Shown: positions 4,549-32,000 of the stretch, piece by piece
Layout of the letters: each line of letters begins with the position of its first letter
How positions within the stretch are numbered: position 1 is the stretch's first letter
Assembly (NCBI GenBank): GCA_963675515.1
Contig: OY776328.1
Coordinates: 2,100,001 to 2,132,000, forward strand
Length of the DNA stretch: 32,000 nucleotides
Source: Coprobacillaceae bacterium
GTDB taxonomy: Bacteria; Bacillota_I; Bacilli_A; Erysipelotrichales; Coprobacillaceae
Reading direction: 5' to 3'
Translations under genes and position numbers: made by a program
Notes under the pieces: model-generated
Seen by the model: only the letters and a program-made list of their open reading frames with translations
Database searches by the model: none
What the model was told of the DNA's origin: nothing

Positions 4549-6226
4549 GGTAGTGTCAAAACCAGTTAGTTATTTACAACCATAATTAACTGGAAAACCG
4601 CATTCTACCTTGGTTTTTTATATATTTAGGTGAATTCCCCCGGATTTCACCCTATAATTTGACCATTTTGTTTACAAAAAAAGGTAACAGCCTCATAATT
4701 GTAAGTGTCTAAACCACAATAAGGAGGACTGTTACCATGGTCAAAATTATATCATTAATAATCAATTTTTTAAATATCATTCGTAGATTTTTGTACAAAT
4801 TTGAGTGTTTCCTGCTAAAGCATCTTCCCAGTGATGGTACGGATTCAAGTAAGAGTGAACCATATCGTCGTTTCAAAATGCATCCGCTTCCTGTTATTGA
4901 ACCGCAATTAATCCCCATCCCATTTCAACAGGCCAGGGATGAGTATGAATCCAAACATAAACGACCTTTGAAACCGGTGTTTAGACATGAAGGCAAAGAC
5001 TATCCATCTGAAGATACTGTTTGCCCACATTGCGGCGCCACTCATGAATACCTGACTTTCAACAACGGAATCAAGAAATCCCAAGTTAAGTGCAAAGTTT
5101 GTGATACGACTTTCTCACTTAATAAGAGTTATTCGCAACAATTGATCCGCAAGTGTCCTCACTGCGGCCGCAAGTTGACGTTGATCAAATCACGTGATGG
5201 TTTTGATGTCTATAAATGTCAAAACTCTAGATGTTCTCACTATAAGAGTGAGTTGAAGAAACTAACAAAAGAAGATAAAAAGAAATACAAGGTAAATCCT
5301 TCTAAATTCTCGCTTCACTACATAACCCGCGTCTTCGATGCTTCAATCGAAAAACTTGAAAGCATCCAGCTGAAAATAGCACCATCAAAAGTTGATCTCT
5401 CCAGAATCCACAATTCTAAGCATGTTTTAGGCCTAGCGTTGACGTATTACGTTAATTATGGCCTGTCTCTTAGAAAAACCGCTTTGGTTTTATACGAGAT
5501 TCACGATATCAAAATATCCCATCAAACAATAGCTAACTACGCTCAGGCAGCCAGCCATCTCCTATTTCCGTGGATGGATAACTACAAGCACGATTTGAAC
5601 TCGTATCATTGCGGAGACGAAACATACGTCAAAGTTTTAGGAAAAAAAGCCTATGTATTTTTCATGTGCGATGTTAGGAAAAAAATAATAACTTCGTATC
5701 GAATTTTCATGAAAAGAGATACCTTTGCGGCTATAAATGCCTTTTATTCAGTCATGAGAAAATTCAAAAAGTTACCGACTGACTTTGAGATCGTTGTTGA
5801 CGGAAATCCGATATATAAAGCCGCTCAACAGTATTTTCAAATCAAAAGAGTATTTTTTAAAGTGACTCAAGTAATTGGACTTACGAATGATGATCCTGTA
5901 TCAAAAGAACATCGCCCTGCCAAACAAATAATAGAGCGTTTGAATAGAACATTTGGAGAAACCTACGCGATCAAAAATGGCTTCAACTCATTGGATGGCG
6001 CAAATGATTTCATGTGTCTGTTCACAACATATTTCAATTTCCTAAGAAATCACACCTCCCTGGGATACAAGCCACCAGTTGAATTGGATTGTTTGAAGAA
6101 AACTCATAACATGCCAAACAAGTGGAACATCCTCATGGAAGAAGCGCTTAGGTATTACCGACAAAACGAACACGAAACTCTATTATGAAAAAATCACTGT
6201 TTTTCCATAACGAATTTGACACTACC
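4549..6226 (+). mobile_element. Complete IS6-family insertion sequence (1678 bp)
   Basis: The terminal inverted repeats are perfect over 12 bp: GGTAGTGTCAAA at 4549-4560 and its reverse complement TTTGACACTACC at 6215-6226. Similarity continues imperfectly further inward. A single DDE transposase ORF lies inside. The element is flanked by an 8-bp direct repeat, and both the 8-bp duplication and the GG-initiated ends are typical of IS6/IS26-type elements. Confidence 0.85.
4737..6188 (+). CDS. IS6-family DDE transposase with a long N-terminal zinc-ribbon extension
   Basis: The ORF is 483 aa, with GGAGG 9 nt upstream of the ATG. The DDE core is GDETYVKV (identical to the IS26-type DETYVKV motif), VVDGNPIY and IIERLNRTF. 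The N-terminal 200 aa carries CxxC pairs: CPHCG...CKVCD and CPHCG...CQNSRCSH. Confidence 0.85.
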   Translation: MVKIISLIINFLNIIRRFLYKFECFLLKHLPSDGTDSSKSEPYRRFKMHPLPVIEPQLIPIPFQQARDEYESKHKRPLKPVFRHEGKDYPSEDTVCPHCGATHEYLTFNNGIKKSQVKCKVCDTTFSLNKSYSQQLIRKCPHCGRKLTLIKSRDGFDVYKCQNSRCSHYKSELKKLTKEDKKKYKVNPSKFSLHYITRVFDASIEKLESIQLKIAPSKVDLSRIHNSKHVLGLALTYYVNYGLSLRKTALVLYEIHDIKISHQTIANYAQAASHLLFPWMDNYKHDLNSYHCGDETYVKVLGKKAYVFFMCDVRKKIITSYRIFMKRDTFAAINAFYSVMRKFKKLPTDFEIVVDGNPIYKAAQQYFQIKRVFFKVTQVIGLTNDDPVSKEHRPAKQIIERLNRTFGETYAIKNGFNSLDGANDFMCLFTTYFNFLRNHTSLGYKPPVELDCLKKTHNMPNKWNILMEEALRYYRQNEHETLL

Positions 6227-13568: not shown

Positions 13569-15069
13569 TTATCAAACCTGAGTTTCTGAATTTTTGAGGA
13601 GATACGCCATAATAGTCTCTGAAGGACTGGCAAAAATAAGATACGTTCGGGTATCCTACACTGGTTGAGATGGATATGATTTTCTCGTGTGAATTTTCAA
13701 GCAGGTCACGTGCCCGTTCCATTCTATACGACTTTATGAACTTTGAGAGATTGACTCCGGTCTCTTTTTTGAAAATATGAGACAGATAGCTTGGTGCCAG
13801 ACAGACAAGATCTGCCAGCATGTCGACTGAGATATCTTGAGAGTAATGAGCATAGATATACCTTTGAACCGTTTCGATTTCTTTATGAATCAGATTGAGT
13901 TTGTTATCAATTGTTTTTTCCAAGTCATCTACGAATAATCCTACAACTCTTTCAATACTTTTGATGTTCCGGGCATGATAATATTCGACTATCCTTCGGT
14001 TTAATTCCTGCTGGGTGAGCTCTGGCAGTGACTGTGCAATTTCCCTTATGACACTCGCAAACGTGAATTTGAAATATTCGGTCGAAAAATTCTTGCATTC
14101 AAGATAGTCTTTAAAGTATTTATGGATGTCTGATCTTATTTTATCTATATTTTGAGTTCTGATGTTATTCTTCACATTTTCTAGTATTTTATCTAGTTCG
14201 AGTTCTTTGAATTCCCTATCTATGTCGTCACCATGGTAAAGAATTCGGGTATGTGGGAGATAATAACGGGATTCCATCAAATCCTCCAGTTCTTCGATGC
14301 TTGAAGAAAAATCGTTGTCTTTGACTATAGAAACTGCGATGAAGCATTTTTTTGCGAAGTTGACATCGATATAGGTTATGATTGATTTTCCAAGAGCGAT
14401 CAGTTTGTCTTTGTTGTCATCTTCAAGAAAAAGCAGAGATTCGCTTGGATTCATATTCAAATATCTGAATCCTATTTCGGTAAGGTCCAGGAAATCAAGT
14501 TTTGCATTGGAAGCGAAAAAGACATCTTCGAAAAATATCAAGATAAGACTTTTGTACTTGCCAAGATATCCAATGACATCCATGTCCGGATACTGCTTGG
14601 CAAGAGAGGCGACATTTCGTCCGTTTGTCACACTTACAAGAAGATGCTCATTGATCAGGTTTTCATTGAAGTCGGCCATGGCCTGATTTTCAAGTCGTTG
14701 TTTTTTCTCATCAATCAGTTTGTTTAGGGAATTGTAGAATTCGTTTGGATCAACCGGTTTTAAGATGTATTCCTGTACTCCAAGTGTTATCGCCTTTTTT
14801 GCGTAATCAAACAAGCTGTAACCGGAAAAAATCACCGTTCCCAGTTCAGGGCATATTTTATACGCTTCCTTGATCAGTTCGAGCCCGTCCATGAAAGGCA
14901 TTTGTATATCTGTAAGCAAATAGTCAATCTCGGTGTTTTTAAGACACTCCAATGCCTTTTGCCCATTGGCAGCTTCGTGTATTTCGAATTCATAATTCAT
15001 CGAATTCAATAAAAATATTATTCCCTGACGTGATATCCTGTCATCATCAACTACTAAAACTTTATCCAT
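13555..15069 (-). CDS. Response regulator with AraC-type HTH output (YesN-like)
   Basis: The 504-aa ORF has a receiver domain (MDKVLVVDDD...DIQMPFMDGL...KP). Its C-terminal AraC/XylS HTH is YSQDISVDMLADLVCLAPSYLSHIFKKETG...GYPNVSYFCQSFRDYYGVSP. It overlaps the kinase start by 14 nt. Confidence 0.9.
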   Translation of the reverse strand: MDKVLVVDDDRISRQGIIFLLNSMNYEFEIHEAANGQKALECLKNTEIDYLLTDIQMPFMDGLELIKEAYKICPELGTVIFSGYSLFDYAKKAITLGVQEYILKPVDPNEFYNSLNKLIDEKKQRLENQAMADFNENLINEHLLVSVTNGRNVASLAKQYPDMDVIGYLGKYKSLILIFFEDVFFASNAKLDFLDLTEIGFRYLNMNPSESLLFLEDDNKDKLIALGKSIITYIDVNFAKKCFIAVSIVKDNDFSSSIEELEDLMESRYYLPHTRILYHGDDIDREFKELELDKILENVKNNIRTQNIDKIRSDIHKYFKDYLECKNFSTEYFKFTFASVIREIAQSLPELTQQELNRRIVEYYHARNIKSIERVVGLFVDDLEKTIDNKLNLIHKEIETVQRYIYAHYSQDISVDMLADLVCLAPSYLSHIFKKETGVNLSKFIKSYRMERARDLLENSHEKIISISTSVGYPNVSYFCQSFRDYYGVSPQKFRNSGLINEND

Positions 15070-15072
15070 AAC

Positions 15073-15573
15073 CTACTCCTTAACATCCACCAGATAATTG
15101 GCACGCATCTTGATTGCCTTGATAAGCCTGTCATCAAGAACCGTCAGAACACATGCGTAGTTCAAACCGCTTTTAAATACAAGGGCAATTTGCCGCTTGG
15201 TCATATCCGGTGATAAGAAATTATAAATTCTAACTTTTTTGAGACGGTACCTGTTAACTAGCTCTTTGTTATTTTTTGCAACAAGTTCCAGGTCATTGAA
15301 ATTCCCTTTGAACACAACTTTGCGTTTGTTGAAATTCATGATGCGGGCGACCTCAAATTCATCGTTGACAATTATATAGTCGTATTGGGTTTTGTTCGCA
15401 TTGTTGACGCAATATGCCAGGTATAAGAATAAAGGACCAAGAGGCAGTAAAAATATCATAACCGTGCTTGTCATGATGAAGAAAATACCGATGGCAGTCA
15501 ATAGATTTCTTATTATAATCAGTTTGAGCTGTCTGCGTCCGGTAACAGTTTGTTCAATCGAAATATCATCCAT
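15073..15573 (-). CDS. Small membrane protein of unknown function, first gene of the two-component operon
   Basis: The track ORF starts at a TTG (15579). An ATG at 15573 lies 9 nt from GGAGG (15583-15587), so I prefer it. The product has a two-TM hairpin (LLTAIGIFFIMTSTVMIFLLPLGPLFLYLAYCV) followed by a roughly 100-aa soluble tail. The stop lies 3 nt before the response-regulator ATG. I recognise no family. Confidence 0.6.
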   Translation of the reverse strand: MDDISIEQTVTGRRQLKLIIIRNLLTAIGIFFIMTSTVMIFLLPLGPLFLYLAYCVNNANKTQYDYIIVNDEFEVARIMNFNKRKVVFKGNFNDLELVAKNNKELVNRYRLKKVRIYNFLSPDMTKRQIALVFKSGLNYACVLTVLDDRLIKAIKMRANYLVDVKE

Positions 15574-15740
15574 ATTCAAAATCCTCCTCTCTCACATTGT
15601 AACATAGTGCAAAGAAAGGGATATGACAAATTTATTAGATAATTGTTGAAAATTTAATAAAATTGGCACTTTTACAAAAAATCTTATATACCCTTTCAAA
15701 AAGATGTTGAATATAATTCAGGTATGGAGGAAATTTAGAT

Positions 15741-16853
15741 ATGGCTAATTTATCACTAGAAAATATTTGTAAAACATACCCTAATGGGTTTGAAGCAGTC
15801 AAGAATTTCAATATTGAAATTGAAGAACAGGAATTTATCATATTTGTCGGTCCTTCGGGATGCGGTAAATCGACAACATTGAGAATGATTGCAGGTCTTG
15901 AAGACATATCCGATGGACTGTTAAAGATTGACGATCAGATTGTAAATGATGTGGAATCAAAAGACCGTGACATTGCCATGGTTTTTCAAAACTATGCATT
16001 ATATCCGCATATGAGTGTTTATGACAACATTGCTTTTGGTCTCAAGGTCCGTCATGTTCCCAAAGATGAAATAGATAAGGCTATAAAAGAAGTCGCCAAA
16101 GTTCTTGATCTTGAAAACTTGCTCAAACGCAAGCCCAAAGCACTTTCCGGTGGCCAACGTCAACGTGTGGCCATGGGTAGAGCGATGGTAAGAAATCCCA
16201 AGATTTTTTTGATGGACGAACCATTATCAAATCTTGATGCAAAATTAAGGGTTCAAATGAGAACTGAAATTGCCAAGCTGCACAAAAAGCTTGGGGCCAC
16301 AATCATATACGTCACTCACGACCAGACAGAAGCGATGACTCTTGGTACAAGAATTGTTGTCATGCAAAAAGGCGTTGTTCAGCAGATAGATTCACCGACA
16401 AATCTCTATAACAAACCAAAGAACCTTTTTGTAGCCGGGTTTATCGGTTCACCGCAAATGAACTTTCTCAAAACTGACGTCATCGAAAAAAATGGCGAAA
16501 TCTTTTTAGCGGTGAAAAACAACATATTTGTCAAGCCGTCAGTCGCCAAAGCAAATCGTCTGAAAAGTTTGAATTATGTCGGTAAACAGGTAATCATGGG
16601 AATTCGTCCTGAAGACATCCATGAGGAAGAACTCTTCATAGCGGCTTCATCTGATACACAATTTGAGTGTGAGATAGATGTTATCGAAACGCTTGGGTCG
16701 GATACTTACTTGCATTTCTCAATTGCAGACACAAAGTTTGTCGCACGTGTTGATCCAAGATGCAATACTGGAGTTAATGAAACAATGACTTTTGCTATCG
16801 ATGCCAATCAAATGCACTTTTTCGATGTTGACAGTGAGCTGGCGATTTATTAA
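15741..16853 (+). CDS. msmX: Multi-sugar ABC transporter ATP-binding protein (MsmX/MsmK/MalK-type)
   Basis: The 370-aa ORF has Walker A GPSGCGKST, the signature LSGGQRQR and Walker B IFLMDEPLSNLD. It also has a C-terminal MalK-like regulatory/TOBE region. A GGAGG SD is present. Confidence 0.9.
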   Translation: MANLSLENICKTYPNGFEAVKNFNIEIEEQEFIIFVGPSGCGKSTTLRMIAGLEDISDGLLKIDDQIVNDVESKDRDIAMVFQNYALYPHMSVYDNIAFGLKVRHVPKDEIDKAIKEVAKVLDLENLLKRKPKALSGGQRQRVAMGRAMVRNPKIFLMDEPLSNLDAKLRVQMRTEIAKLHKKLGATIIYVTHDQTEAMTLGTRIVVMQKGVVQQIDSPTNLYNKPKNLFVAGFIGSPQMNFLKTDVIEKNGEIFLAVKNNIFVKPSVAKANRLKSLNYVGKQVIMGIRPEDIHEEELFIAASSDTQFECEIDVIETLGSDTYLHFSIADTKFVARVDPRCNTGVNETMTFAIDANQMHFFDVDSELAIY

Positions 16854-16954: not shown

Positions 16955-18550
16955 CTAAGGCAGCGGGATGTTGAATGCTTCATAGATATTTCGCTGTTCC
17001 TTCGTTACTGGGGCGATGATACTTTGGCCGTTGATATCCTGGATGCGCAACTTTGCAAGGATTTGGAGAAGCTCCTTCATCGTGTGTTTCTTGTACAGTC
17101 CTTTGTCATTCATCACTTTGTTGATTTCTGACATGATTACTGATGCAATGAATCCGACGAATAGTTTCCCTTGCATCGCATTGTCGCTATGTACTCGCAA
17201 CCTTCCGAGGTCGATGTTATTTTTTAGACGGAGGAAGCCTTTTTCCACGACATCCTTATCCCGATATATCGTAATTGCTTTTTGAGCATCGCTGATGTCA
17301 TTGCTTATCAAGACAACCCAACCTGCGGTTTTAAGACTTTTTTCAACAACGTCTGTCCTGATGTTGACAGTGTATCCACTGTCCTGTTTTTCTGATTTGC
17401 GGATAATCAGATACTTACTGCATTCTGTGTCATGTAGCCATTTTTCAGGATTTTCAGTAGCCTTTTGCCGCAGCACGGCTATTGATGAATAAAGGTCTTC
17501 ACGGATTCCCGCAGCCTTCTTAGCGCTGTAGTAAATGTGGGTGTACAATTTGTGTTTAGGATCCCAAGAACGTTCCTTGGTTACTGCTCGCATTGAATTT
17601 CCGTTGATGACAATTGTGTTCTCCACACAATCGATGTCTTTCCGTTCGCCTTCTACCTGGTTCTTGGCAAAGGCAGACGAGAATGGTACTGAGATCAAGA
17701 ATTTTACCGGTCCGCCACCTCTTTCATCAAGCATTTTATTGATGTTTGAAGCACTGTAAAAACCTTTATCCATAACTACGGTGATGGCCCGGCTTCCAGT
17801 TGTAGCTTCAAATTGATCTAGTGTGTTTTTGAGAGTACGGACATCCTTCTGGCTGCCACTGAATATGGTTTGGAACAAAGGTAGCCTTTTGGATTCTCCC
17901 ATGAGCATGCAGATATTGATCTGCGGCAGGTTATCATGATCACGATTATAGCCCCATTCCACATCGTCAATCAATTCCGAATAAGATGACGTTGAAGTTA
18001 TATCCAAAGCCAGGTATTCATCATCTTTGTTTGCAGTATACCAATGGCGATAAAAATCACTCCGTTGATTTGCGGTAAGAGAAATCAAAAGCTCACTTAT
18101 GCGTTGCGATGTCAATGAACCGACAGGGTATGATTGTGTTCCTGAAATCCATTCATTACAGTACATCATCGGGTCGCTAGTGGAAATCATGTAACAAGCA
18201 AGCATGAATATCTCTTGCCAGTGGTTTGGCATAGATCGCTCCAAAGCATCGATCAAACCTGAGTTTTCAGCAATGGTGCGATACAAATGGAAAAGCCCAT
18301 ATGAACGCACTGATGACTTTTTGATATCGTCGATAGAGAACACTTTCTCGGTTGAAGGGATCTCTATCACTTGACCCGCTAGACGAAGCTCTTCCAAATA
18401 TTCGGGTTTATAGATCTTTTGTCCAGTCTTAGGATCGATTTTCCCAATCGAACGACGCTTTTGTCTTACCTGCCCATCTTTCGTGCGAAATCCCTCAGCA
18501 AGATAAATATATTGATACTGACCAACCTTCTGAATAACCTCATAACTCAT
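16955..18550 (-). CDS. IS1634-family DDE transposase
   Basis: The N-terminus MSYEVIQKVGQYQYIYLAEGFRTKDGQVRQKRRSIGKID is typical of the family. The product also has VVMDKGFYS and the C-terminal YRDKDVVEKGFLRLKN motif (YREK-type). The track start at 18559 is a GTG inside the SD, so I prefer the ATG at 18550, 5 nt after GGGGTGA. Confidence 0.8.
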   Translation of the reverse strand: MSYEVIQKVGQYQYIYLAEGFRTKDGQVRQKRRSIGKIDPKTGQKIYKPEYLEELRLAGQVIEIPSTEKVFSIDDIKKSSVRSYGLFHLYRTIAENSGLIDALERSMPNHWQEIFMLACYMISTSDPMMYCNEWISGTQSYPVGSLTSQRISELLISLTANQRSDFYRHWYTANKDDEYLALDITSTSSYSELIDDVEWGYNRDHDNLPQINICMLMGESKRLPLFQTIFSGSQKDVRTLKNTLDQFEATTGSRAITVVMDKGFYSASNINKMLDERGGGPVKFLISVPFSSAFAKNQVEGERKDIDCVENTIVINGNSMRAVTKERSWDPKHKLYTHIYYSAKKAAGIREDLYSSIAVLRQKATENPEKWLHDTECSKYLIIRKSEKQDSGYTVNIRTDVVEKSLKTAGWVVLISNDISDAQKAITIYRDKDVVEKGFLRLKNNIDLGRLRVHSDNAMQGKLFVGFIASVIMSEINKVMNDKGLYKKHTMKELLQILAKLRIQDINGQSIIAPVTKEQRNIYEAFNIPLP

Positions 18551-18564
18551 CCAAATCACCCCTC

Positions 18565-21096: not shown

Positions 21097-22552
21097 CAGA
21101 CAAGCAGGAGTACTTATGCCGATATTTTCACTTCCGGGGCGTCATGGCATAGGTGATCTGGGTGAATCGTCATATGAATTCGTGGAATTTTTGAAGGCAT
21201 CCGGATTCAAAATTTGGCAGATTCTGCCATTGAATCCTTCCTCAGATGCCAACTCCCCATACACTCCATACTCGTCATATGCGGGTGATGAAATATACAT
21301 TTCACTTGAGCAACTGGTCAAAGACGGGTTGCTCGACGATGTTGTTGAATTTAACGAAGAAGCGTGCAGTGTTGATTATGAAAAGGTTCGTTCCTTCAAA
21401 GATGCATATTTGAGATTGGCGTTCTCTAGATTCAAATTATTGGATGATGCTAAAATCAAACATGACTTCCACCAGTTCCAAAATGAGGCTTTCTGGTTAG
21501 GTGAATATGCAAGCTTCATGGCAATAAATAGGTTTATGGGACGGGTTCCATGGACAGAGTGGCCTAAAGATGTAAATTCAAACTTGAACATGATAAATTT
21601 ACAGGATGAGAGAACTTATCAGAGATTCATTCAATTTCTATTTTATCGTCAGTTTGATAGGCTTAAAGAGTGGGCACATAGACATGAAGTGTCGATAATG
21701 GGAGATATCCCATTCTATGTGGGTCTTGATTCGGCTGATGTATTTTTCAATCGCGATGAATTCTTGATAAATGAAAGTGATGAAGCTTTATATGTTTCGG
21801 GTGCATCGCCTGATTACTTCACCGATGAAGGCCAGCTTTGGGGACATCCTATATATAATTGGAATCATCTTAGAAAAACCAACTACAGATTTTGGATGGA
21901 CCGGATAAAATGGAACAGCAGAGTGTTTGACATTCTTAGAATCGATCACTTCCGGGCTTTTGACACCTATTGGCAAATTCCTGCAAAAGATAAAACGGCT
22001 CGAAATGGCAAGTGGGTTGAAGGACCGGGTAGCGATTTTTTCAAAGTTGCATATTCGCAAATTCCCAAATTGAATCTTGTAGTCGAGGACTTAGGTGAAT
22101 TGAGACCACAGGTTCATGACTTGCGTGATGAATTCAATATGATGGGGATGCGAATAATCCAGTATGGATTCGGACCAAATGAAGAAAAGGAAAATTATCA
22201 GATTCCTGAGTGGTCTGTCGCTTATACTGGCACTCATGACAATAACCCTCTTGAAGCATGGAAGGATGAACTATCGTTGGATGAGCGATTTTCTATAGAA
22301 GACATCCTCGACAAATTCGGATACCCTGGTGAAAATATGTGTGAAAGAGTCTACTACCGCACTTTTGCATGTGAGGCGATGGTCGCCATTGTCCAAGTTC
22401 AGGATATACTTAAACTATCAAGTGGGACTAGAATCAACTTGCCTGGGACAGTGGGAGAACATAATTGGTCCTGGAAGCTAAAAGACTTTGAAAGTCTGAT
22501 TGGCAAAACTAAATTGACAAGATCTATCTTACAAAAGACAAACAGATTGTAG
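21071..22552 (+). CDS. malQ: 4-alpha-glucanotransferase (amylomaltase, GH77)
   Basis: The 493-aa ORF has [19 protein letters not shown] at the N-terminus and also RIDHFRAF and TGTHDN. It overlaps the glgP end by 26 nt. The start is either 21071 or 21074. Confidence 0.9.
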
Positions 22553-22583
22553 TTCCAGTTTAATTACAATTCGTATAATAAAG

Positions 22584-22636
22584 AATCTCCAATCCGACAA
22601 GCACGAAACACGCTTCTCTGACTGGAGATTTTTTAT
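22584..22636 (+). terminator. Candidate terminator of glgP-malQ
   Basis: The arm AATCTCCA (22584-22591) pairs with TGGAGATT (22623-22630) and is followed by TTTTAT. The loop is long and may fold internally (AAGC/GCTT). Confidence 0.45.
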
Positions 22637-22662
22637 GGTCTTGCTTCCAACAGAAATAGTTA

Positions 22663-23020
22663 TTCATCGATGAATTTGGCAATGATCACTCATACCATCA
22701 ATGGTTTCTCGATGTAATACATCAAGAACATGCGAGCAGCCTTCCTCTTTTCTCGGGGATTACAACATATGTAAGCTTTTGAGAATTTTCGAAGGCAACG
22801 TGCATCTCCTTCAACTTGGCCAGAGCTTTGTCCATATCCAATTTGGCAGTGCTTTTCGCCACGAAAAGATCTTTGGCGATGGTATCCAGACTAACCGGTG
22901 TCTCTCCAAACAAAAGCACTAGCATCATCCTGTCTTTGAGCAGGGATGGTTGGAAAATAGTTCTCCAGATCATAGAAATGGCGATCCATATAGCCGAGTA
23001 TTTTTGCTTTATGAGCGGGA
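22663..23020 (-). pseudogene. Truncated, frameshifted fragment of a paralogue of the PRD/HTH regulator at 1-1542
   Basis: The nucleotide sequence aligns with 984-1347 of the intact gene in the same orientation. Identical runs reach about 38 nt, for example GCTTTGTCCATATCCAATTTGGCAGTGCTTTTCGCCAC. The encoded piece LLFGETPVSLDTIAKDLFVAKSTAKLDMDKALAKLKEMHVA compares with LLFGEKPVSLDTIAKDLYVAKSTAKLDMDKALATLKDMHVA in the intact gene. The fragment lacks the N-terminal HTH and everything C-terminal. A 5-nt and a 1-nt indel break the frame. Confidence 0.85.
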
Positions 23021-23067
23021 AAATTCCATCACCGCATTTTGATTCCCGGACATTCCGGGCGCAAATG

Positions 23068-23107
23068 AAAATTGCACCGGACTCTGATAAGAGTCCGGTG
23101 CAATTTT
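23068..23107 (-). terminator. Strong hairpin, probable terminator of the pot/pat operon (structurally bidirectional)
   Basis: A perfect 17-bp stem AAAATTGCACCGGACTC-tgataa-GAGTCCGGTGCAATTTT has its T-run partly inside the stem. It lies about 105 nt downstream of the aminotransferase stop. Confidence 0.7.
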
Positions 23108-23211
23108 CATCAATAATAACCACATGAATATATGGGTTGCTGTCAAGACAGCCTGACTGGAAACCAATCTCCCGTTTTGTTCAGTCGTCTTAAATCAGGT
23201 TTCCAGGACTA

Positions 23212-24561
23212 TCAGCTATAGATTTTCGAAGTCTCTTCCAAAGCCAGGTCCATTCTTTCAATAACCTGCTCCATTTGTTCTTCCGTGATTACGGCCGCCG
23301 GTTCGAACCGGATACATTTGCTGTTGACAAGCGTCCCGGCAGTCAGTACACCTCGGGCAAACATGCCTTTGGCAACCTCATAGCCGATGTCACTTTCTTT
23401 GAATTCGACAGCAAGCATCAGTCCGGTCCCACGGACTTCGTCAATAAGGCCAGGGTATTTTCCCGCCAGACGTTCCAATCCCGCTTTCAGGATTTCACCT
23501 TTGCTCTTGCATTGGCCAGGAATGTCATGGTCAAGCATGTATTTGATTGTCGCCAAAGCTGCCGAACAAGCCAAAGGATTTCCTCCGAATGTCGGTGAAC
23601 CGAGCAACCATGGGTTGTCGATAAGCTCCTGGGTCCACATGTTGGGACGACAGATAATACCGGTGATCGGCATGATTCCACCGCCGAATGCTTTTCCATA
23701 ACACATGATATCAGGAACAACATCCTCGGCTCCGCAACGCCACATTGAACCTGTACGTCCCATCCCTGTCTGGATCTCGTCAAAAATCAAGGCAACTCCG
23801 TATTCGTCGCAGATGGCTCTCAATTCCTTGAGATAACCTTTTGGCGGTATTTTGATTCCCGCCTCACCTTGGATCGGTTCGACGATCATGGCAGCCACTT
23901 TTTCTCCTACCGATATCAAGTTCTCGATGGCTTTTCGGGCATCTCGGGCATTTCCGTATTCAACATGCTGAACCTGTTGGACCATCGGTGTATATGGGAT
24001 CCGATAGGTGTTTTTCCCACCAACCGAGATCGCACCCATGCTTTTTCCATGGAATGCTCCGACCGTTGATATGTAGTAACGGCCTCCGGTTGCTATTCTT
24101 GCAAGTTTCAAGGCCATCTCGACTGCTTCGGCACCCCCGTTTGTAAAGAAACAGTATTCCAGGTCACCAGGCGTGATGTCCGCCATGGCTTTGGCAAGAT
24201 AACCCCTCAAAGGATCAAGCAACTCTTGGGAATGCAATGCCTGATGATCGAGTTGGGCTTTGACGATATCGACAATGAAATCATTGCGATGTCCGCATGT
24301 GTAGATTCCAAATCCCCCAAGACAGTCGATAAACTCTTCGCCGTTCAATCCGGTACAGATTGCATCTTTGTCTTTCCACTCAAGTACTGCCGAATTAGTC
24401 GATACCGATTTTCTATATTTCAACCATCCAGGAGACACGTAATTATCAAAGTGGTAAATTGTCTCCCTGGTCATCTCGTCTTTTTGTTCCTGGGTAAGTT
24501 CATCACTTTTGATGTACCCGAGAACTTTTTCCAAATCTTTGCTTACTTCTGTATAATTCAT
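23212..24561 (-). CDS. patA: Putrescine--2-oxoglutarate aminotransferase (class III PLP aminotransferase, PatA/YgjG-like)
   Basis: Long blocks match my memory of E. coli YgjG: GEEFIDCLGGFGI, GHRN, LHSQELLDPLR, ILEPIQGE-type VEPIQGEAG, FDEIQTGMGRTG, FGGNPLACSAALATI. The PLP-Lys context is YGKAFGGG. I prefer the ATG at 24561 (GGAG 6 nt upstream) over the track start at 24591, which would overlap the upstream gene. Confidence 0.85.
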   Translation of the reverse strand: MNYTEVSKDLEKVLGYIKSDELTQEQKDEMTRETIYHFDNYVSPGWLKYRKSVSTNSAVLEWKDKDAICTGLNGEEFIDCLGGFGIYTCGHRNDFIVDIVKAQLDHQALHSQELLDPLRGYLAKAMADITPGDLEYCFFTNGGAEAVEMALKLARIATGGRYYISTVGAFHGKSMGAISVGGKNTYRIPYTPMVQQVQHVEYGNARDARKAIENLISVGEKVAAMIVEPIQGEAGIKIPPKGYLKELRAICDEYGVALIFDEIQTGMGRTGSMWRCGAEDVVPDIMCYGKAFGGGIMPITGIICRPNMWTQELIDNPWLLGSPTFGGNPLACSAALATIKYMLDHDIPGQCKSKGEILKAGLERLAGKYPGLIDEVRGTGLMLAVEFKESDIGYEVAKGMFARGVLTAGTLVNSKCIRFEPAAVITEEQMEQVIERMDLALEETSKIYS

Positions 24562-24571
24562 TTTATTCTCC

Positions 24572-26044
24572 TTAATTCTCATACCAACCAAGATTTTCCT
24601 CGGTAAGGTTTATGTTTATTTGCTTGATTTCCTGATATTCTTCAAGACCCTGGATTCCAAGTTCCCGGCCAATTCCTGACATCTTGTAACCGCCCCAAGG
24701 CGCTTCATTGAATGTCGGATTGTAACAATTGACCCAGGTGATTCCGGCACGGATTTCCCTGACAACCCGCATCGCCTTGGAAATGTTCTTGCAAAAAACC
24801 GCGCCCGCCAGTCCATATGGCGTATCGTTGGCAAGCTCGATGGCTTCTTGTTCCGACTTGAAAGTCTGCACTGTCACAACAGGGCCGAATATTTCTTCCT
24901 TCACGATGGTCATATCGCTGTGGCAATCAGCGAAGACAGTAGGCTCGACGACCAAACCGTTTTCACAGCCATCTTCAAGATGCCGTCTTCCGCCACATAC
25001 AAGCGTAGCTCCTTCGTTTTTCCCTGTTTCGATGTATTTCATGACTTTTTCGAAATCAGGGCGGGATATCAGGCTTCCGATATCCGGGTTGTCAAGAGGA
25101 TTGCCATATTTCATGTTCGAAACCTTGGCTTTCAATTTTTCCAGGAAACTGTCCTTGATTGATTCATGAATTATGATCCGCGAACCAGCTGAGCATACTT
25201 CGCCCTGATTGAAGAATATTCCGATCATAGCCCATTCCACCGCGAAATCCAGATCAACATCATCAAAGATGACATTCGGTGATTTTCCACCAAGTTCCAA
25301 ACCGATTTTTTTGATGTTGGTGGCGGCATTTGCCATAAGCAGTTGCCCCACTTTGGTGCTTCCGGTGAAGGCGATCATGTCGACATCCTTTGATTTGGAC
25401 ATGATCGTACCGACCAGAGCATCCCCTTGAAGCAGATTGCAGCATCCCTTGGGCAGGCCGACTTCGTCGAAAATCTCAAACAATCTGATTGTCGAAAGCG
25501 GCGCCTTGGGAGACGGCTTGAATACCACACTGTTTCCTGCCGCCAAAGCCGGCGCCAGTTTCCATACCGACATGAGCAACGGATAATTCCATGGAGTTAT
25601 CTGGGCCACCACCCCGACCGGTTCATGGATCGTGTAAGTGTGCATCTCCCCAAATCCTTTGTTGACCTGGTAGCTCCCACCACTTGGGACTTTGATGGCC
25701 CCGGCATAATATCTGAAGCAGTTTATCGCATCGGATATGTCACCTTCCGCCTCCCGAAGCGGCTTTCCCGAATCGACACAGTCCAAGTATGCCAGTTCGT
25801 CGGCCAGCTCTTCCATCCTGTCGGCAATCTTCAAAATCAGATTCGAACGATCCTGGTTGTCGAAATCACGCCAGGTCCGGTCGACGTAAAATGATTTTTT
25901 TGCCGCCTGAATTGCGGCCTCCGTCTGGGCCTCAAGTGCCTCGTAACATTTGCCGATCACATTGCCGTCGAAAGGGTTTGTGACCTCGAAAATCTTTGGT
26001 GATTCGGTCCATTCACCGTCGATATACAGTTTTTTTATCTCCAT
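24572..26044 (-). CDS. NAD(P)-dependent aldehyde dehydrogenase, aminobutyraldehyde/betaine-aldehyde dehydrogenase-like (PatD/YdcW-type role inferred)
   Basis: ALDH motifs are present: ELGGKSP, GEVCSAGSR (catalytic Cys) and EEIFGPV. The track ORF begins at 26170, but that stretch overlaps the potD 3' end. MEIKKLYIDGEW begins at the ATG at 26044, with GGAG 7 nt upstream and 4 nt after the potD stop. The specific substrate is inferred from the flanking patA and pot genes. Confidence 0.8.
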   Translation of the reverse strand: MEIKKLYIDGEWTESPKIFEVTNPFDGNVIGKCYEALEAQTEAAIQAAKKSFYVDRTWRDFDNQDRSNLILKIADRMEELADELAYLDCVDSGKPLREAEGDISDAINCFRYYAGAIKVPSGGSYQVNKGFGEMHTYTIHEPVGVVAQITPWNYPLLMSVWKLAPALAAGNSVVFKPSPKAPLSTIRLFEIFDEVGLPKGCCNLLQGDALVGTIMSKSKDVDMIAFTGSTKVGQLLMANAATNIKKIGLELGGKSPNVIFDDVDLDFAVEWAMIGIFFNQGEVCSAGSRIIIHESIKDSFLEKLKAKVSNMKYGNPLDNPDIGSLISRPDFEKVMKYIETGKNEGATLVCGGRRHLEDGCENGLVVEPTVFADCHSDMTIVKEEIFGPVVTVQTFKSEQEAIELANDTPYGLAGAVFCKNISKAMRVVREIRAGITWVNCYNPTFNEAPWGGYKMSGIGRELGIQGLEEYQEIKQININLTEENLGWYEN

Positions 26045-26048
26045 GATG

Positions 26049-27095
26049 CTACTCCTTGAGTGCAGTCCACATTGAGTCATAGGTAGCAAGTGTATCAACG
26101 TCAAGATTTGCCACCGAATGACTGATTGCAACAGCTTCGGCAGGAATGTTTGTTGCCGGATTGTTGGCATAATCTTCGCCCATCAATTCGACAGCTGCAC
26201 CGTTGGGACACATGTATGGGAATTCTTCAAGTACCATTTCCATGTTTTCAGGTTCGCAGATGAAATTCAAGAATTCCATGGCATTGTCATAGTTCTTCGC
26301 CCCTGTAGGAACCGCCCAGTTATCAAGGAAGGCAAATGCCCCTTCTTCAGGATAGACGATTTCAATATTTGGATTTTCGTTCATTGCCAAGGCGATTTCA
26401 GCGTTCCAAACCGCACCAACGGTACAGTCACCGGAAATAAGCGCCGATTTCGGTGAATCGGAATCATAAAGTTTCACATTTTCCTTCAGTTTGAGCAACT
26501 GTTCTTCAATCAACTGCAATTTGTCCGGGTCCGTTTCATTGAAATCATAACCTAACGAAACCGCGGCCATACCGATGATTGCCCGGTAGTCATCAAGAAC
26601 AACCAGGGAACCACCTAAATCGCTGGCAAACAAATCGGCATAAGATGTGATCGTCTTGTCGACTTTCGCAGTATTCACTGCGATGGCCATCAAACCCCCA
26701 AGGTAAGGAATCGTATATTCTCCAGTCGGATCATAGCTAGGATTTAGATATGCCTCATCAATATTTGAGGCATTGGCCACCTTGTCGAAATCGATGGTTT
26801 GGACCAGTCCCTGTTCAATCATCATTTCCGCCATGTAATCTGTCGGTTGGACCAGATCGTAGGTCCCTTCTGTTTCCGATTTTACTTTGGCAAGCATATC
26901 TTCGTTTGACGAATATGTTGTCAGGTTAACTTTAATCCCTGTTTCATCTTCGAACTTGTCCAATACCGATTGGGGAATATATTCCGTCCATGCGTAAATG
27001 TTCACTTCCTCCCCGCTCGAAGTAGAACTTGAACATCCTGTCAATAATCCTGCAACCATAGTGCAACTCAATAATAATTTCAGACTCTTCTTCAT
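26049..27095 (-). CDS. potD: Spermidine/putrescine ABC transporter substrate-binding lipoprotein (PotD-like)
   Basis: The 348-aa ORF has the lipobox LLTGC. It shows the PotD/PotF family pattern (VNIYAWTEYIPQSVLDKFEDETGIKVN...YDLVQPTDY...). Confidence 0.85.
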   Translation of the reverse strand: MKKSLKLLLSCTMVAGLLTGCSSSTSSGEEVNIYAWTEYIPQSVLDKFEDETGIKVNLTTYSSNEDMLAKVKSETEGTYDLVQPTDYMAEMMIEQGLVQTIDFDKVANASNIDEAYLNPSYDPTGEYTIPYLGGLMAIAVNTAKVDKTITSYADLFASDLGGSLVVLDDYRAIIGMAAVSLGYDFNETDPDKLQLIEEQLLKLKENVKLYDSDSPKSALISGDCTVGAVWNAEIALAMNENPNIEIVYPEEGAFAFLDNWAVPTGAKNYDNAMEFLNFICEPENMEMVLEEFPYMCPNGAAVELMGEDYANNPATNIPAEAVAISHSVANLDVDTLATYDSMWTALKE

Positions 27096-27107
27096 GATTT
27101 TTCCCTC

Positions 27108-27911
27108 TTAAAATTTCTTCTTCTTAGATTTTAAAATACCTGACTGACTTACTATCACTACTAAAATTGTTCCCATCAGAATCAATGTCGACAAGGCATT
27201 GATATCCGGAGAAACCCCCGATTTGATCGACTCCATGATTTTCAATGGGAATGTCTTTATCTGACCATTGACAAAGTAGGAGATAATCACATCATCAATT
27301 GATAAGGTGAAGGCCAGAAGGCCCCCCGAATAGATTCCCGGTGCCAGCATCGGCAACGTGATTTCGAAAAATGTTCTAAGACGCCCGGCTCCAAGATCCA
27401 TGCTTGCTTCCTCGACTGAATAGTCATAATTGGCAAGCCGGGTTCTTACATTGAAAATGACAAATGGAACGCAGAATGTCACGTGCGACAGGATCAAGGT
27501 GATCAGTCCACGCGGTATCGATGTATTGGCATAAAGTGTCAACAATGAGATACCCAGAACAATTTCCGGAATCACAACCGGAATGTAAAGCAAGGCCTCG
27601 ATGATATTTTTGCCCTTGAACTTGTAGCGATACATCCCCACAGCACCAAGTGTCCCGATCACCACGGATAGGATTGTGGAAACCAGGGCAATGATCATGG
27701 TGTATTTGAAGGATTCGATTATCTGACTGTTGTCGAACAAATTCAGATACCAATCGAAGGTGAACCCTTTCCATGAAAAGTACGGTTTGGTGGTGTTTGC
27801 GTTAAATGAATTGGTAATGATGACGATGATCGGACAGAAAAGGAACAAATATACCAGGGTACAATTGATGACTTTCAAAAATCCGACAAACTTCCTTTTA
27901 GTATTCTTCAT
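27108..27911 (-). CDS. potC: Spermidine/putrescine ABC transporter permease (PotC-like)
   Basis: The 267-aa product has six TM segments. Its EAA loop is EEASMDLGAGRLRTFFEITLPMLAPG. A GGGAGG SD is present. Confidence 0.85.
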   Translation of the reverse strand: MKNTKRKFVGFLKVINCTLVYLFLFCPIIVIITNSFNANTTKPYFSWKGFTFDWYLNLFDNSQIIESFKYTMIIALVSTILSVVIGTLGAVGMYRYKFKGKNIIEALLYIPVVIPEIVLGISLLTLYANTSIPRGLITLILSHVTFCVPFVIFNVRTRLANYDYSVEEASMDLGAGRLRTFFEITLPMLAPGIYSGGLLAFTLSIDDVIISYFVNGQIKTFPLKIMESIKSGVSPDINALSTLILMGTILVVIVSQSGILKSKKKKF

Positions 27912-27913
27912 CC

Positions 27914-28780
27914 CTAACCTCCCAAATCTTCCATATTGCCACCAAACTTGCGATACAGCTGTACCAAAAGCAATGTGATGATAATCAAGATGATTGACAA
28001 TGCCGCCCCAAGTGGCCAGTTGTTTCCTGATTGGAACTGTCTTTCAATTAAGTTACCGATCATATCGGTATTACCACCCCCCAAAATATCAGACACAAAG
28101 AAATAACCCAAAGTCGGTATGAACACCATGATCGAGCCGGAAAAGATACCCGACATCGAAAGCGGAATGATAATTTCCTTGAGGGTGTTATACCACTTGC
28201 CACCCAGATCACTGCTTGCTTCCAGCAGGGAATTATCGATTTTCCCCAAAGAAGTGTACAATGGCAATATCATGAAAGGGATAAGGCAATACACCATCCC
28301 AAGAATGGTAGTCGCCTGATTGAACAGCAGGTCCAGAGGTTCTTTTATCAATCCAAGGGCGATCAGCCCGTTGTTGATCCATCCGGTAGTTCCCAGCAGC
28401 ATTCGCCATCCATAGATCCTGATCAATGAATTTGTCCAGAAAGGGACAATCACCAACATGTACAAAACGTTCTTGTATTTCGATTTCGTCCGGGAAATTA
28501 TGAAAGAGAACGGAAATGAAATAAGCAGACAGACGACAGTTGTCATCAACGCGATGAACAATGAACGCAGGTATATCTGCAGATAGTTCATATCGAACAA
28601 TCTCTGGTAATTCTTCAGACTGAAATCAAGTACTACATTGTAATACTGATCGATCGAACAAAAACTCATCACCATGATCCCGACCAGCGGAATCGCAATG
28701 AAGAATATCATCCACAAGCTGACTGGGCCAACAGTGGCCATCATCGGCATTATGAACTGTTTGAATTTCAACCTAGACAT
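27914..28780 (-). CDS. potB: Spermidine/putrescine ABC transporter permease (PotB-like)
   Basis: The EAA loop is LEASSDLGGKWYNTLKEIIIPLSMSG. The track start at 28816 is a TTG inside potA. I prefer the ATG at 28780 (MSRLKFKQ), preceded by GGGGTGA and lying just after the potA TGA. Confidence 0.85.
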   Translation of the reverse strand: MSRLKFKQFIMPMMATVGPVSLWMIFFIAIPLVGIMVMSFCSIDQYYNVVLDFSLKNYQRLFDMNYLQIYLRSLFIALMTTVVCLLISFPFSFIISRTKSKYKNVLYMLVIVPFWTNSLIRIYGWRMLLGTTGWINNGLIALGLIKEPLDLLFNQATTILGMVYCLIPFMILPLYTSLGKIDNSLLEASSDLGGKWYNTLKEIIIPLSMSGIFSGSIMVFIPTLGYFFVSDILGGGNTDMIGNLIERQFQSGNNWPLGAALSIILIIITLLLVQLYRKFGGNMEDLGG

Positions 28781-28784
28781 AAGC

Positions 28785-29903
28785 TCACCCCTTTTCAACC
28801 AGAGGCGTGTTTTCAATCATCTGGTAGATTGCATTGTCCAGTGAATGAAACAGGACGGCATCTTCGTGATGCCAGTGCAGATACAAGGGAGTGCCGATCA
28901 ACGGCATTTCCTGACCGGCAAGACGTTCAATGGTAACCCGGTTGCCATTGCTCAAGGTAACGATCCCCTTGATTATCGAACCAACGTAAACGTAGGTTGA
29001 CATCTCACCCAACAGTTCGAATCCGCCAACTGGCTCCATTGAATATCTGAGCTTTTCCGGCCGGATTGAAATATTGACAAGATCCCCTTTTTCGAAGTCA
29101 TCATCAATCGAATCGAAATAACCCTCCTCGGTCCTCACTTTGATTCCACTTGAATTCTTGTCCTCCACATACCCGTCAAAAACATTGGTCTCACCAATGA
29201 ATGTGGCGACAAACTTCGTTTTTGGTTTCTCGTATATCTCTTCCGGGGTCCCGATCTGGTCGATGACACCCTGGTGCATGACCGCAATCCGATCACTCAT
29301 AGTCAGCGCCTCCTCTTGGTCATGGGTGACATAGACGAAAGTGATATTCAGTTTCCGCTGCAGTTGCTTCAATTCCAGCTGCATCTGTTTTCTGAGTTTC
29401 AGATCCAATGCGCCCAACGGTTCATCAAGCAAGAGGACTTTCGGTTCATTGATCAAAGCCCGGGCAATCGCAACCCTTTGCTTCTGTCCTCCAGAGAGCT
29501 GGTCGGGGTACCTGTCCCCGAATCCATCAAGTTGGACCAGACTGAGCATTTCATTTACTTTCTCGTTTATGATCTCTTTGGAAACCTTCTTGATTTTCAA
29601 ACCATATGCGATGTTTTGAAAAATGGTTTTGTGAGGAAAAAGCGCATAAGACTGGAATACCGTATTCACATTTCTTTCAAACGGTTCTTTGCCCTCAACT
29701 TCCTCGTTTTCAATCTTGATTTTACCGCTCGACACCTGTTCAAATCCGGCAATCATCCGCAAAGTTGTGGTCTTACCACATCCTGAACTGCCAAGCAGTG
29801 TCAGGAATTCCCCTTCGTAGATATCAAGATTCAAATCCTTTACTACATGATTCGCACCATATAATTTATTCACGCTCTTTATTTCGATGATGTTTTTCTT
29901 CAA
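28785..29903 (-). CDS. potA: Spermidine/putrescine ABC transporter ATP-binding protein (PotA-like)
   Basis: The 372-aa ORF has Walker A GSSGCGKTT, the signature LSGGQKQR and Walker B LLLDEPLGALD. It also has a C-terminal regulatory/TOBE-like domain. The start codon is a TTG 6 nt after GGGGGA, and no nearby ATG exists. Confidence 0.88.
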   Translation of the reverse strand: MKKNIIEIKSVNKLYGANHVVKDLNLDIYEGEFLTLLGSSGCGKTTTLRMIAGFEQVSSGKIKIENEEVEGKEPFERNVNTVFQSYALFPHKTIFQNIAYGLKIKKVSKEIINEKVNEMLSLVQLDGFGDRYPDQLSGGQKQRVAIARALINEPKVLLLDEPLGALDLKLRKQMQLELKQLQRKLNITFVYVTHDQEEALTMSDRIAVMHQGVIDQIGTPEEIYEKPKTKFVATFIGETNVFDGYVEDKNSSGIKVRTEEGYFDSIDDDFEKGDLVNISIRPEKLRYSMEPVGGFELLGEMSTYVYVGSIIKGIVTLSNGNRVTIERLAGQEMPLIGTPLYLHWHHEDAVLFHSLDNAIYQMIENTPLVEKG

Positions 29904-29918
29904 GACAATTCCCCCTAT

Positions 29919-30266
29919 CTATAAAGCCTTAGCCCCTCTTTCACCTGTTCGAATTCTGATTGCATTATCAATAGGTTTAATAAATATCTTACCGTCACCG
30001 ACATGTCCAGTAGCGACTTTTTCTTGAACGTTCATAATTAGTGCCTCAACATCGTCGTCTTCAACAACAACACTAACCTGGATTTTTGGTAATAAATTTA
30101 TTGAAACTTTCAGTCCCCGTAATTCATTAAAATGAGATAAGTCCCCTTTTTGACTACCACATCCCATCACGGTTGTAATTGTCATTCCGCCGTAGTTCAT
30201 TTCATCGACGATTTGTTTGACTACCTCTAATTTCTCAGGTCTAATGATCATCACTAATTCTTTCAT
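29919..30266 (-). CDS. glnB: PII nitrogen-regulatory signal-transduction protein (GlnB/GlnK family)
   Basis: The 115-aa ORF starts MKELVMIIRPEKLEVVKQ. It has GMT.T.V.G.G.QKG, the B-loop TGHVGDGKIF and the C-terminal RIRTGERGAKAL. An AGGAGG SD is present. The stop lies 15 nt before the potA start. Confidence 0.88.
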   Translation of the reverse strand: MKELVMIIRPEKLEVVKQIVDEMNYGGMTITTVMGCGSQKGDLSHFNELRGLKVSINLLPKIQVSVVVEDDDVEALIMNVQEKVATGHVGDGKIFIKPIDNAIRIRTGERGAKAL

Positions 30267-30284
30267 ACGTTTTCCTCCTGTGAC

Positions 30285-30311
30285 AAGAAGTTATCGCGAT
30301 AATAACTTCTT
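30285..30311. promoter_or_regulatory. Inverted repeat AAGAAGTTAT-N7-ATAACTTCTT at about +1 to +26 of the operon (candidate operator or 5' UTR hairpin)
   Basis: The 10-bp arms are perfect (30285-30294 and 30302-30311). They begin about 6 nt downstream of the -10 box and end just upstream of the SD. Confidence 0.5.
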
Positions 30312-30316
30312 ATTAC

Positions 30317-30344
30317 ATTATAACATGTCATTCTCTACTGTCAA
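30317..30344 (-). promoter_or_regulatory. Near-consensus sigma-A promoter of the PII-pot-pat operon
   Basis: The minus strand reads TTGACA (30344-30339), a 16-nt spacer, then TATAAT (30322-30317), about 50 nt upstream of the PII ATG. Confidence 0.7.
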
Positions 30345-30889
30345 TGTCACTTAAGTACAAGTGCAGAATTGTTTTTTAGGCTGACATCACAAATTTTTAC
30401 GGAATATATTGTGCAATCAACATCTACCAGACAACAAAGGCGGGTAATTTTCGTACCCTAATTTTGTCTTATCCGATTTTATATGGATCCAATATATGGG
30501 CCGAACAGTGCAAACATACGATGCCAATATGAAAATAAACGGTTACCACCTGATATCCGGACAATATTCTCTCAGCCGCCAAATGAAGTGTCATTTGTCT
30601 AACCACCATCCATTTTTCGACCCGAAAAAGGTCTGAACACAGGAGTTTGGAGTGCACCTGCCACATTGTACACCAGGCAATACCACATTGTACATCGAAA
30701 GGCCTGCCTTCAATTTCAAGACTGCAAGATAGACTCGCCACCAGCACAACTCATACCAGTCATTTTATCCGTATCCGACGATTTCCTGCCAACGTTCAAA
30801 CGTGGCTTCAAATCATGCGGTTCCACCTGAAATTAAAAGTAGTGCAGATTCATATCAAAAGCTGTGACTGCATATTCCAATTGGAGGGA

Positions 30890-31178
30890 TTAAATGTAGG
30901 CGTCAAATATGCAAAAAAAGTTACCCGGAATTCCAGATAACTTGACAATCATATATCACTTCATTTAACTTGATAGTTCAATTTCAATTATCCGACCATT
31001 TCTCGACTACGTCCTTCATCAAGTAGAGATGGAGCGCTTTAAAGGTGTCCATTTTCCTGTTGGGGATTAGTGCAAAATATCCCAGATACCGTTTGGCTTT
31101 ACGGATTGCTCCTTCTTTGTAGATCACGGTTATGCCACCTTTAGGCGACTTCTTAACTTTGAAGAATTCAGCGTATGA
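30890..31178 (-). pseudogene. Decayed 3' remnant of an IS1634-like transposase gene
   Basis: The open segment 30984-31178 encodes FFKVKKSPKGGITVIYKEGAIRKAKRYLGYFALIPNRKMDTFKALHLYLMKDVVEKWSDN*. This parallels KTAGWVVLISNDISDAQKAITIYRDKDVVEKGF of the intact transposase at 16955-18550. Downstream, a shifted frame gives GNFFCIFDAYI (compare GKLFVGFIASVI), followed by stops. There is no N-terminal part. Confidence 0.55.
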
Positions 31179-31186
31179 TTATTCGT

Positions 31187-32000
<814 letters not shown>

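Follow-up and report, generated by a model that had tools for sequence, protein, structure and literature searches.

The open reading frame at positions 29919–30266 on the minus strand of the 32-kb stretch of DNA analysed here (the window) is, as judged from the sequence of its product, the gene of a PotN-type member of the PII superfamily. It stands first in a predicted operon that also specifies a polyamine ABC transporter and enzymes of putrescine catabolism. By analogy with PotN, the PII protein most likely targets PotA, the ATPase subunit of this transporter; it would form a trimer, sense ATP/ADP, and adjust the activity of the ATPase. A PII gene linked to pot genes was already described in 2022; the gene in the window is a divergent new example of that arrangement, and not a new idea.

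A predicted transcription unit headed by a PII gene

The open reading frame starts with an ATG codon, codes for 115 amino acids, and is preceded by a Shine–Dalgarno sequence (AGGAGG, 30279–30274) 8 nt before the start codon. The initial annotation had recognized a PII protein by its B-loop, TGHVGDGKIF, and its C-terminal RIRTGERG. Both motifs are read directly in the translated sequence, and membership in the PII superfamily was borne out by sequence score as well as by predicted fold. The Pfam P-II profile (PF00543) matched residues 1–109 with 87.3 bits, against a cut-off of 25. An AlphaFold2 model, for which 48 homologues were used as input, reached a mean pLDDT of 87 (ca. 54 in the T-loop), and its strands and helices followed each other in the order E-H-E-E-H-E, which is that of the ferredoxin-like β-α-β-β-α-β fold. 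When the model was compared with the PDB using Foldseek, every top match was a PII protein. PotN of Lentilactobacillus hilgardii (7O4X) ranked second, with an rmsd of 1.3 Å, in a search that has no power to split PotN from GlnK-type structures, since all PII proteins score alike in it.

The elements of the unit, from the promoter to the terminator, are as follows:

30317–30344, minus strand: σ70 promoter (TTGACA, a 16-nt spacer with extended TG, TATAAT; 12/12 consensus)
30285–30311, minus strand: leader stem-loop AAGAAGTTAT-tatcgcg-ATAACTTCTT, between the promoter and the Shine–Dalgarno sequence
29919–30266, minus strand: predicted PotN-type PII, first gene of the operon (Pfam P-II, match to 7O4X, neighbour-joining tree, structural model)
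28785–29903, minus strand: potA, ATPase of a polyamine ABC transporter (Pfam ABC_tran and C-terminal TOBE_2)
27914–28816, minus strand: potB, permease (Pfam BPD_transp_1); start uncertain, the listed TTG overlapping potA by 32 nt
27108–27911, minus strand: potC, permease (Pfam BPD_transp_1)
26049–27095, minus strand: potD-like gene, spermidine/putrescine-binding lipoprotein (Pfam SBP_bac_8)
24572–26044, minus strand: aldehyde dehydrogenase (Pfam Aldedh, 570 bits)
23212–24591, minus strand: putrescine aminotransferase, PatA-like, class-III (Pfam Aminotran_3); exact start uncertain
23064–23111, minus strand: operon terminator, a long G+C-rich hairpin (ATTGCACCGGACTCT/AGAGTCCGGTGCAAT) followed by the T-tract TTTCATTT

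The potA gene, whose start codon is a TTG at 29903, scored above the cut-off of NCBIfam TIGR01187 (383.6 vs 355.6 bits), and its product was 54% identical to the PotA encoded beside L. hilgardii potN in an alignment that covered both the ATPase and the C-terminal domain. The best NCBIfam match of the potD-like protein was PotD, with a score (252.6 bits) under the equivalog cut-off. At the distal end of the unit, the putrescine aminotransferase reached 681 bits with NCBIfam NF008570 (cut-off, 612); the amino acceptor of this enzyme class is 2-oxoglutarate. The substrate of the aldehyde dehydrogenase is probably aminobutyraldehyde, its matches to the NCBIfam BADH and aminobutyraldehyde dehydrogenase models being under their cut-offs. 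Analysis of start codons and Shine–Dalgarno sequences placed the true start of the aldehyde dehydrogenase gene at the ATG at 26044, 4 nt past the potD stop codon, and led us to reject the upstream ATG of the long open reading frame.

The PII gene lies 15 nt before potA on the same strand, as had been stated, and no terminator-like site was found when this gap of exactly 15 nt was searched. The gaps between all successive genes are 15, −32, 2, 12, 4, and about −20 nt. The earlier description of the promoter as the only good one of the block also holds: it was the sole 12/12 match on either strand in 22500–31300, and it aligned with the conserved −35/−10 pair of related loci. At the other end, the terminator region (23050–23125) folded with −37 kcal/mol in RNAfold. 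With one promoter before the genes, one terminator after them, and gaps of 15 nt or less, PII, potA, potB, potC, potD, aldehyde dehydrogenase, and putrescine aminotransferase are thus predicted to be co-transcribed as one seven-gene unit. A 133-aa open reading frame at 22722–23123 (minus strand), just past the aminotransferase gene, was considered as an eighth gene and rejected, because Pfam gave no match and the operon terminator lies across its 5′ end. In the listed form it is probably no gene, or else a fragment.

None of the genes amtB, glnA, and nif is present in the 32-kb window, in line with the earlier remark that no amtB was in sight. The rest of the window is made up of a maltodextrin/glycogen cluster, a two-component system, and two transposases. 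The cluster for maltodextrin/glycogen utilisation comprises a pullulanase, a sugar ABC transporter, the two-component system, a MalK-like ATPase, a glucan phosphorylase, and a 4-alpha-glucanotransferase. It is interrupted by the transposase genes at 4737–6188 (plus strand) and 16955–18559 (minus strand), one of whose products carries DDE_Tnp_IS240 and rve_3 domains and zinc ribbons, while the other is of the DDE_Tnp_1 type.

Relationship to PotN and to GlnB/GlnK proteins

PotN, a PII-like regulator whose gene lies in the L. hilgardii pot operon, was reportedly described by Iskhakova et al. in FEBS J in 2022. Its structure, 7O4X, was the top phmmer match of the window PII in the PDB. The two sequences are 48% identical, are aligned with one single-residue gap, and share a long T-loop ending in INLLPK. 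The overall phmmer score was not clear-cut, Aquifex GlnB (100.6 bits) being nearly tied with PotN (100.7 bits), and the placement was therefore based on three independent tests, namely derived characters, phylogeny, and synteny.

The near-tie, for a protein that is a bona fide PII, would also fit a nitrogen regulator of the common GlnB/GlnK type whose gene lies beside the pot operon by accident. The NCBIfam equivalogs speak against such an assignment, since the window PII fell far short of the cut-offs for GlnB and GlnK: its scores were 91 bits against a required 181 (NF007946) and 81.7 bits against 202 (NF008111). The T-loop speaks against it as well. Counted from Gly35 to Lys58 in canonical numbering, the T-loop of the window PII (GCGSQKGDLSHFNELRGLKVSINLLPK) has 27 residues, compared to 24 in E. 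coli GlnB/GlnK and in Aquifex GlnB. Position 38 is occupied by Ser in place of the canonical Arg38, and the counterpart of Tyr51, which in the canonical Tyr51-Arg-Gly motif is uridylylated or adenylylated, is the leucine of Leu48-Arg-Gly, the loop being devoid of tyrosines. The alignment agrees in all three respects with the initial annotation, in which the T-loop was called unusual because of its three extra residues, Ser38, and the lack of a Tyr at the uridylylation position. Of the conclusions drawn there, the suggestion of a different set of partners may well stand, as it fits the published picture of PotN, while the extra length does not hold as a marker: T-loops within the pot-linked clade span 21–32 residues, the canonical 24 included, and length was dropped as a family character.

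The derived characters that are common to the window PII, its close relatives, and PotN of lactic acid bacteria are Met34, which replaces the Lys or Arg of GlnB/GlnK, a residue other than Arg at position 38, the loss of Tyr-Arg-Gly, and the NLLPK ending. An insertion in the T-loop is also common to the window PII and PotN. The PotN loop is elongated to 26 residues and, with Asn38 and a Leu at the position of Tyr51, has neither of the two canonical residues. The central parts of the two loops differ (DLSHFNELRGLKVS in the window PII, EKTTTILKGGEFH in PotN), and so may the contact surfaces. Within the clostridial branch, to which the window PII belongs with Lachnospiraceae metagenome-assembled genomes (MAGs) as the closest relatives of its locus, the T-loop is strongly conserved (consensus, vNEIKGxKTtINLLPK), which argues for a conserved protein partner.

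The phylogenetic test relied on a neighbour-joining tree of 102 PII sequences with 100 bootstraps. The references included were E. coli GlnB and GlnK, Aquifex GlnB, Synechococcus PII, B. subtilis GlnK, archaeal GlnK, and a Tyr-bearing clostridial PII. The proteins with verified pot linkage, the window PII and PotN among them, shared an ancestor from which 50 tips descended, and in 92 of the 100 bootstraps all the canonical references fell outside the group defined by the ancestor of the pot-linked set. The outer limits of the clade are soft, the exact set of 50 tips recurring in 20 of the 100 bootstraps only. By its sequence, the window PII is a member of the PotN clade, set apart from GlnB/GlnK.

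The residues of the nucleotide site are conserved in PotN and in the window PII. The latter has the TGxxGDGKIF motif, the C-terminal RxR, Gly35, Gly37, and Gln39, and K61 as the counterpart of Lys58; its adenine-nucleotide site is, from these residues, intact. In an alignment of 48 clade members, G27, G35, G37, Q39, K61, G90-D91-G92-K93, R104, and R106 were invariant.

Gene neighbourhoods and leader regions of related loci

The initial annotation had proposed a survey of gene neighbourhoods, and this was carried out with one genome per species. It covered 33 relatives with 61–70% identity to the window PII, mostly Lachnospiraceae MAGs. The pot genes were found directly downstream of the PII gene, on the same strand, in 32 of the 33, and the contig of the remaining one ends 99 nt past PII. 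The order of the genes was potABCD in 26 complete loci and potDABC in 4, and in 2 further loci the contig ends within potA. Among more distant members of the clade, a PotA-type ATPase gene came next after PII in all 7 loci looked up, including that of L. hilgardii; the rest of the transporter was visible in 5 of these, while 2 contigs end just past the ATPase gene. Pot linkage was also sought for the Tyr-bearing clostridial PII and for a canonical gammaproteobacterial PII, and was absent in both.

The adjacency of PII and pot genes, seen in 32 of the 33 loci sampled from other species-level genomes, is far beyond chance. Together with the separation in the tree, the linkage in close and distant relatives alike leaves very little room for an ordinary GlnB/GlnK protein placed beside pot by accident; that reading is largely refuted, and the synteny survey effectively excludes it. 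Strict PII-potA adjacency is not universal, potD being located before or after PII in 4 of the relatives and in L. hilgardii. Individual homologues were found on at least 1000 public contigs, the annotations of which read Lachnospirales, Eubacterium, or Butyrivibrio sp. CAG:318.

In L. hilgardii, the genes are arranged as potD-potN-potABC-amidohydrolase-aminotransferase-CN hydrolase, so that potN, like the window PII gene, lies within the pot operon just before potA, and a class-III aminotransferase gene is again found downstream. The window differs in having potD at the end of the transporter genes (PII-potABCD) and in having aldehyde dehydrogenase and PatA genes as the catabolic part. Among the 7 distant loci, that of Clostridium vincentii and two from metagenomes also have the gene set of the window. 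The order PII-potABCD-Aldedh-Aminotran_3 was identical in two of these three loci, while in the third the Aldedh gene is upstream of PII.

Two further arrangements were observed in the course of the survey. In a metagenomic locus (L041:1–5741), a second ABC operon lies directly upstream of the PII-potABCD-Aldedh-aminotransferase operon. It consists of genes for an NMT1-type binding protein, two tandem PII proteins (108 and 118 aa), a permease, an ATPase, an Fe-alcohol dehydrogenase, and a class-III aminotransferase, and is another instance of PII genes inside an importer-plus-catabolism operon. In two other relatives (L022 and L023, about 13600–16350), a second pot operon, potD-potA-potB, is located ca. 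1.3 kb past the PII-linked one and has no PII gene of its own. Such an operon could be a natural within-genome control for PII-dependent regulation.

The leader regions of the related loci share additional elements. In 20 of them, a 13-bp hairpin (for example, L022:7942–7989) is located between the conserved promoter and the Shine–Dalgarno sequence of PII; its base is formed by GC(A/G)AAGGAGC...GCTCCTT and is followed by a T-run. The stem-loop in the leader of the window, which folds with about −15 kcal/mol in RNAfold, is in register with this hairpin. In the resulting alignment of 21 sequences, 13 pairs were predicted, 10 of them with compensatory changes. Paired positions made up 86% of the cells of the alignment, compared to 42–63% when the partner was slid, and the observed score was reached by none of 500 shuffles. 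The hairpin of the relatives looks, by sequence, like a terminator or attenuator. The stem of the window is probably not a terminator, because GTCACAGGAGG follows it in place of the T-run. No Rfam family matched the covarying hairpin: the window had no match at the gathering threshold, nor did 30200–31250 at E ≤ 1. A match to sraA in the leader of L022 was discarded as being at chance level (E = 0.24; 22 bits vs a cut-off of 56).

In at least 24 of the 33 relatives, the gene immediately upstream of PII codes for a regulator of ca. 250 aa whose DNA-binding domain is of the GerE (LuxR) type (for example, L022:7095–7844 and, on the minus strand, L038:3929–4690). The homologue in L. hilgardii, which has a GAF match, adjoins potN and is divergent to it. 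In contrast, no homologue of this GAF-GerE regulator was found in the window by tblastn. The site of the regulator gene corresponds in the window to 30267–31186, a stretch of 920 nt that lies between the promoter of the operon and the terminator of the YczE-like gene upstream. It has no open reading frame of 100 aa or more and normal G+C content, and no similarity was detected to any of the retrieved loci or to other parts of the window. A conserved inverted repeat, TACTT-AAA-AAGTA, was noticed upstream of the −35 element in the regulator-bearing loci and may be an operator of the regulator. In the relatives, the operon may be under additional control by the covarying terminator in the leader and by the GAF-GerE regulator encoded beside PII.

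The regulator and the catabolic genes raise the question of whether the PII protein acts on polyamine use instead of uptake, the target being PatA, the aldehyde dehydrogenase, or a transcription factor of the GlnR or GAF-GerE type. Binding of PII proteins to enzymes and to transcription factors is well established, with NAGK, PipX, and TnrA as examples, and PotN has reportedly been found to bind GlnR as well. The operon in the window carries both catabolic genes, and the regulator gene is adjacent to PII in most relatives and in L. hilgardii. However, PII was retained in the window while the GAF-GerE gene is absent, and catabolic genes accompany PII in a minority of loci and are of differing kinds, either Aldedh and Aminotran_3 or amidohydrolase, aminotransferase, and CN-hydrolase. 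PotABCD is the only gene set that was found with PII in every complete locus, across dozens of Clostridia and lactic acid bacteria. We thus regard a catabolic enzyme or a regulator as an unlikely target, and PotA as the likely one.

Predicted mode of action and known parallels

According to the model in which the PotN-type protein tunes PotA, the PII trimer would bind ATP or ADP in the clefts between its subunits, and its T-loops would dock on the PotA ATPase according to the nucleotide bound. The docking site would probably be the C-terminal TOBE-type regulatory domain of PotA. Polyamine import would be throttled at low energy charge; our best guess on the direction of control is that the ADP state is inhibitory. 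PatA and the aldehyde dehydrogenase would then turn the imported putrescine into 4-aminobutyrate. Since the catabolic genes are downstream in the same operon, the PII protein would also govern, in an indirect manner, how much putrescine enters this route, which yields nitrogen. The initial annotation had likewise proposed that PII may gate the uptake of polyamines and had named the C-terminal domain of PotA as a possible means; the homology to PotN and the synteny lend support to this proposal.

A PII protein that is co-transcribed with its transporter and contacts it through the T-loop is well established in the case of GlnK-AmtB of E. coli and B. subtilis. The structure of this complex, 2NS1, was among both the sequence and the fold matches of the window PII. 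The target is, however, a channel and not an ABC ATPase, the T-loop of GlnK plugs the pore, and GlnK has Arg38 and the uridylylation site Tyr51, both of which are missing in the window PII. A parallel in terms of the target is offered by cyanobacteria, where PII controls ABC importers of nitrogen substrates via their ATPase subunits (PII-NrtBCD, PMC10945777, and PII-UrtE). The cyanobacterial protein differs in being a canonical, 2-oxoglutarate-responsive GlnB-type PII with Arg38 and a standard T-loop. Its gene lies outside the transporter operon, and it acts on the C-terminal NrtA-like domain of NrtC and not on a TOBE domain. The same source lists PotN as a regulator of PotABCD, as a parallel to PII-NrtBCD (PMC10945777). 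In another study, PotN and the C-terminal domain of PotA were prepared “as described earlier”, in the 2022 PotN paper (PMC9692440).

The signal sensed by the protein has to be considered separately, because the initial annotation had PII respond to 2-oxoglutarate in addition to ATP and ADP. All the canonical ligands of 2-oxoglutarate and Mg-ATP, namely Q39, K58 (K61 here), and G87 (G90 here), are kept, and they are kept across the clade. The operon ends with a gene for an aminotransferase of the class that uses 2-oxoglutarate, and several relatives share the tail of aldehyde dehydrogenase and aminotransferase. The PII protein might therefore be thought of as a true 2-oxoglutarate sensor that matches putrescine import to the acceptor of PatA and reports on the balance of nitrogen and carbon, not on the energy state. 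We consider this quite improbable. Arg38 is lost, the base of the T-loop is altered, and most PII-potABCD loci are without an aminotransferase. In addition, PotN of L. hilgardii reportedly responds to ATP/ADP and not to 2-oxoglutarate, in spite of having the same 2-oxoglutarate ligand residues. The retained Q39 and K61 are compatible with a response of the window PII to 2-oxoglutarate as well as with the lack of one. Of the earlier proposal, the part on ATP and ADP fits PotN, while the part on 2-oxoglutarate is doubtful in the light of the response reported for PotN.

A narrower version of the idea, restricted to those members of the clostridial branch that have the catabolic tail, is speculative: here, PII would sense 2-oxoglutarate and open the importer only when the amino acceptor is plentiful. 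If true, a single operon would form a self-contained circuit in which the need for nitrogen is sensed and putrescine is taken up and transaminated; such a circuit would be widespread in gut Lachnospiraceae.

Under the preferred reading, an ATP/ADP-sensing PotN-type PII acting on PotA, the locus adds little as a discovery to what was published in 2022. What it does is add to the PotN subfamily, which was defined by experiment in lactic acid bacteria, a clostridial branch that is both large and abundant. The locus also shows that the PII-Pot module is often joined to a putrescine-to-GABA catabolic pair. Since the polyamine traffic of gut Firmicutes affects the polyamine and GABA pools of the host, a conserved post-translational brake on the importer would be a useful experimental target.
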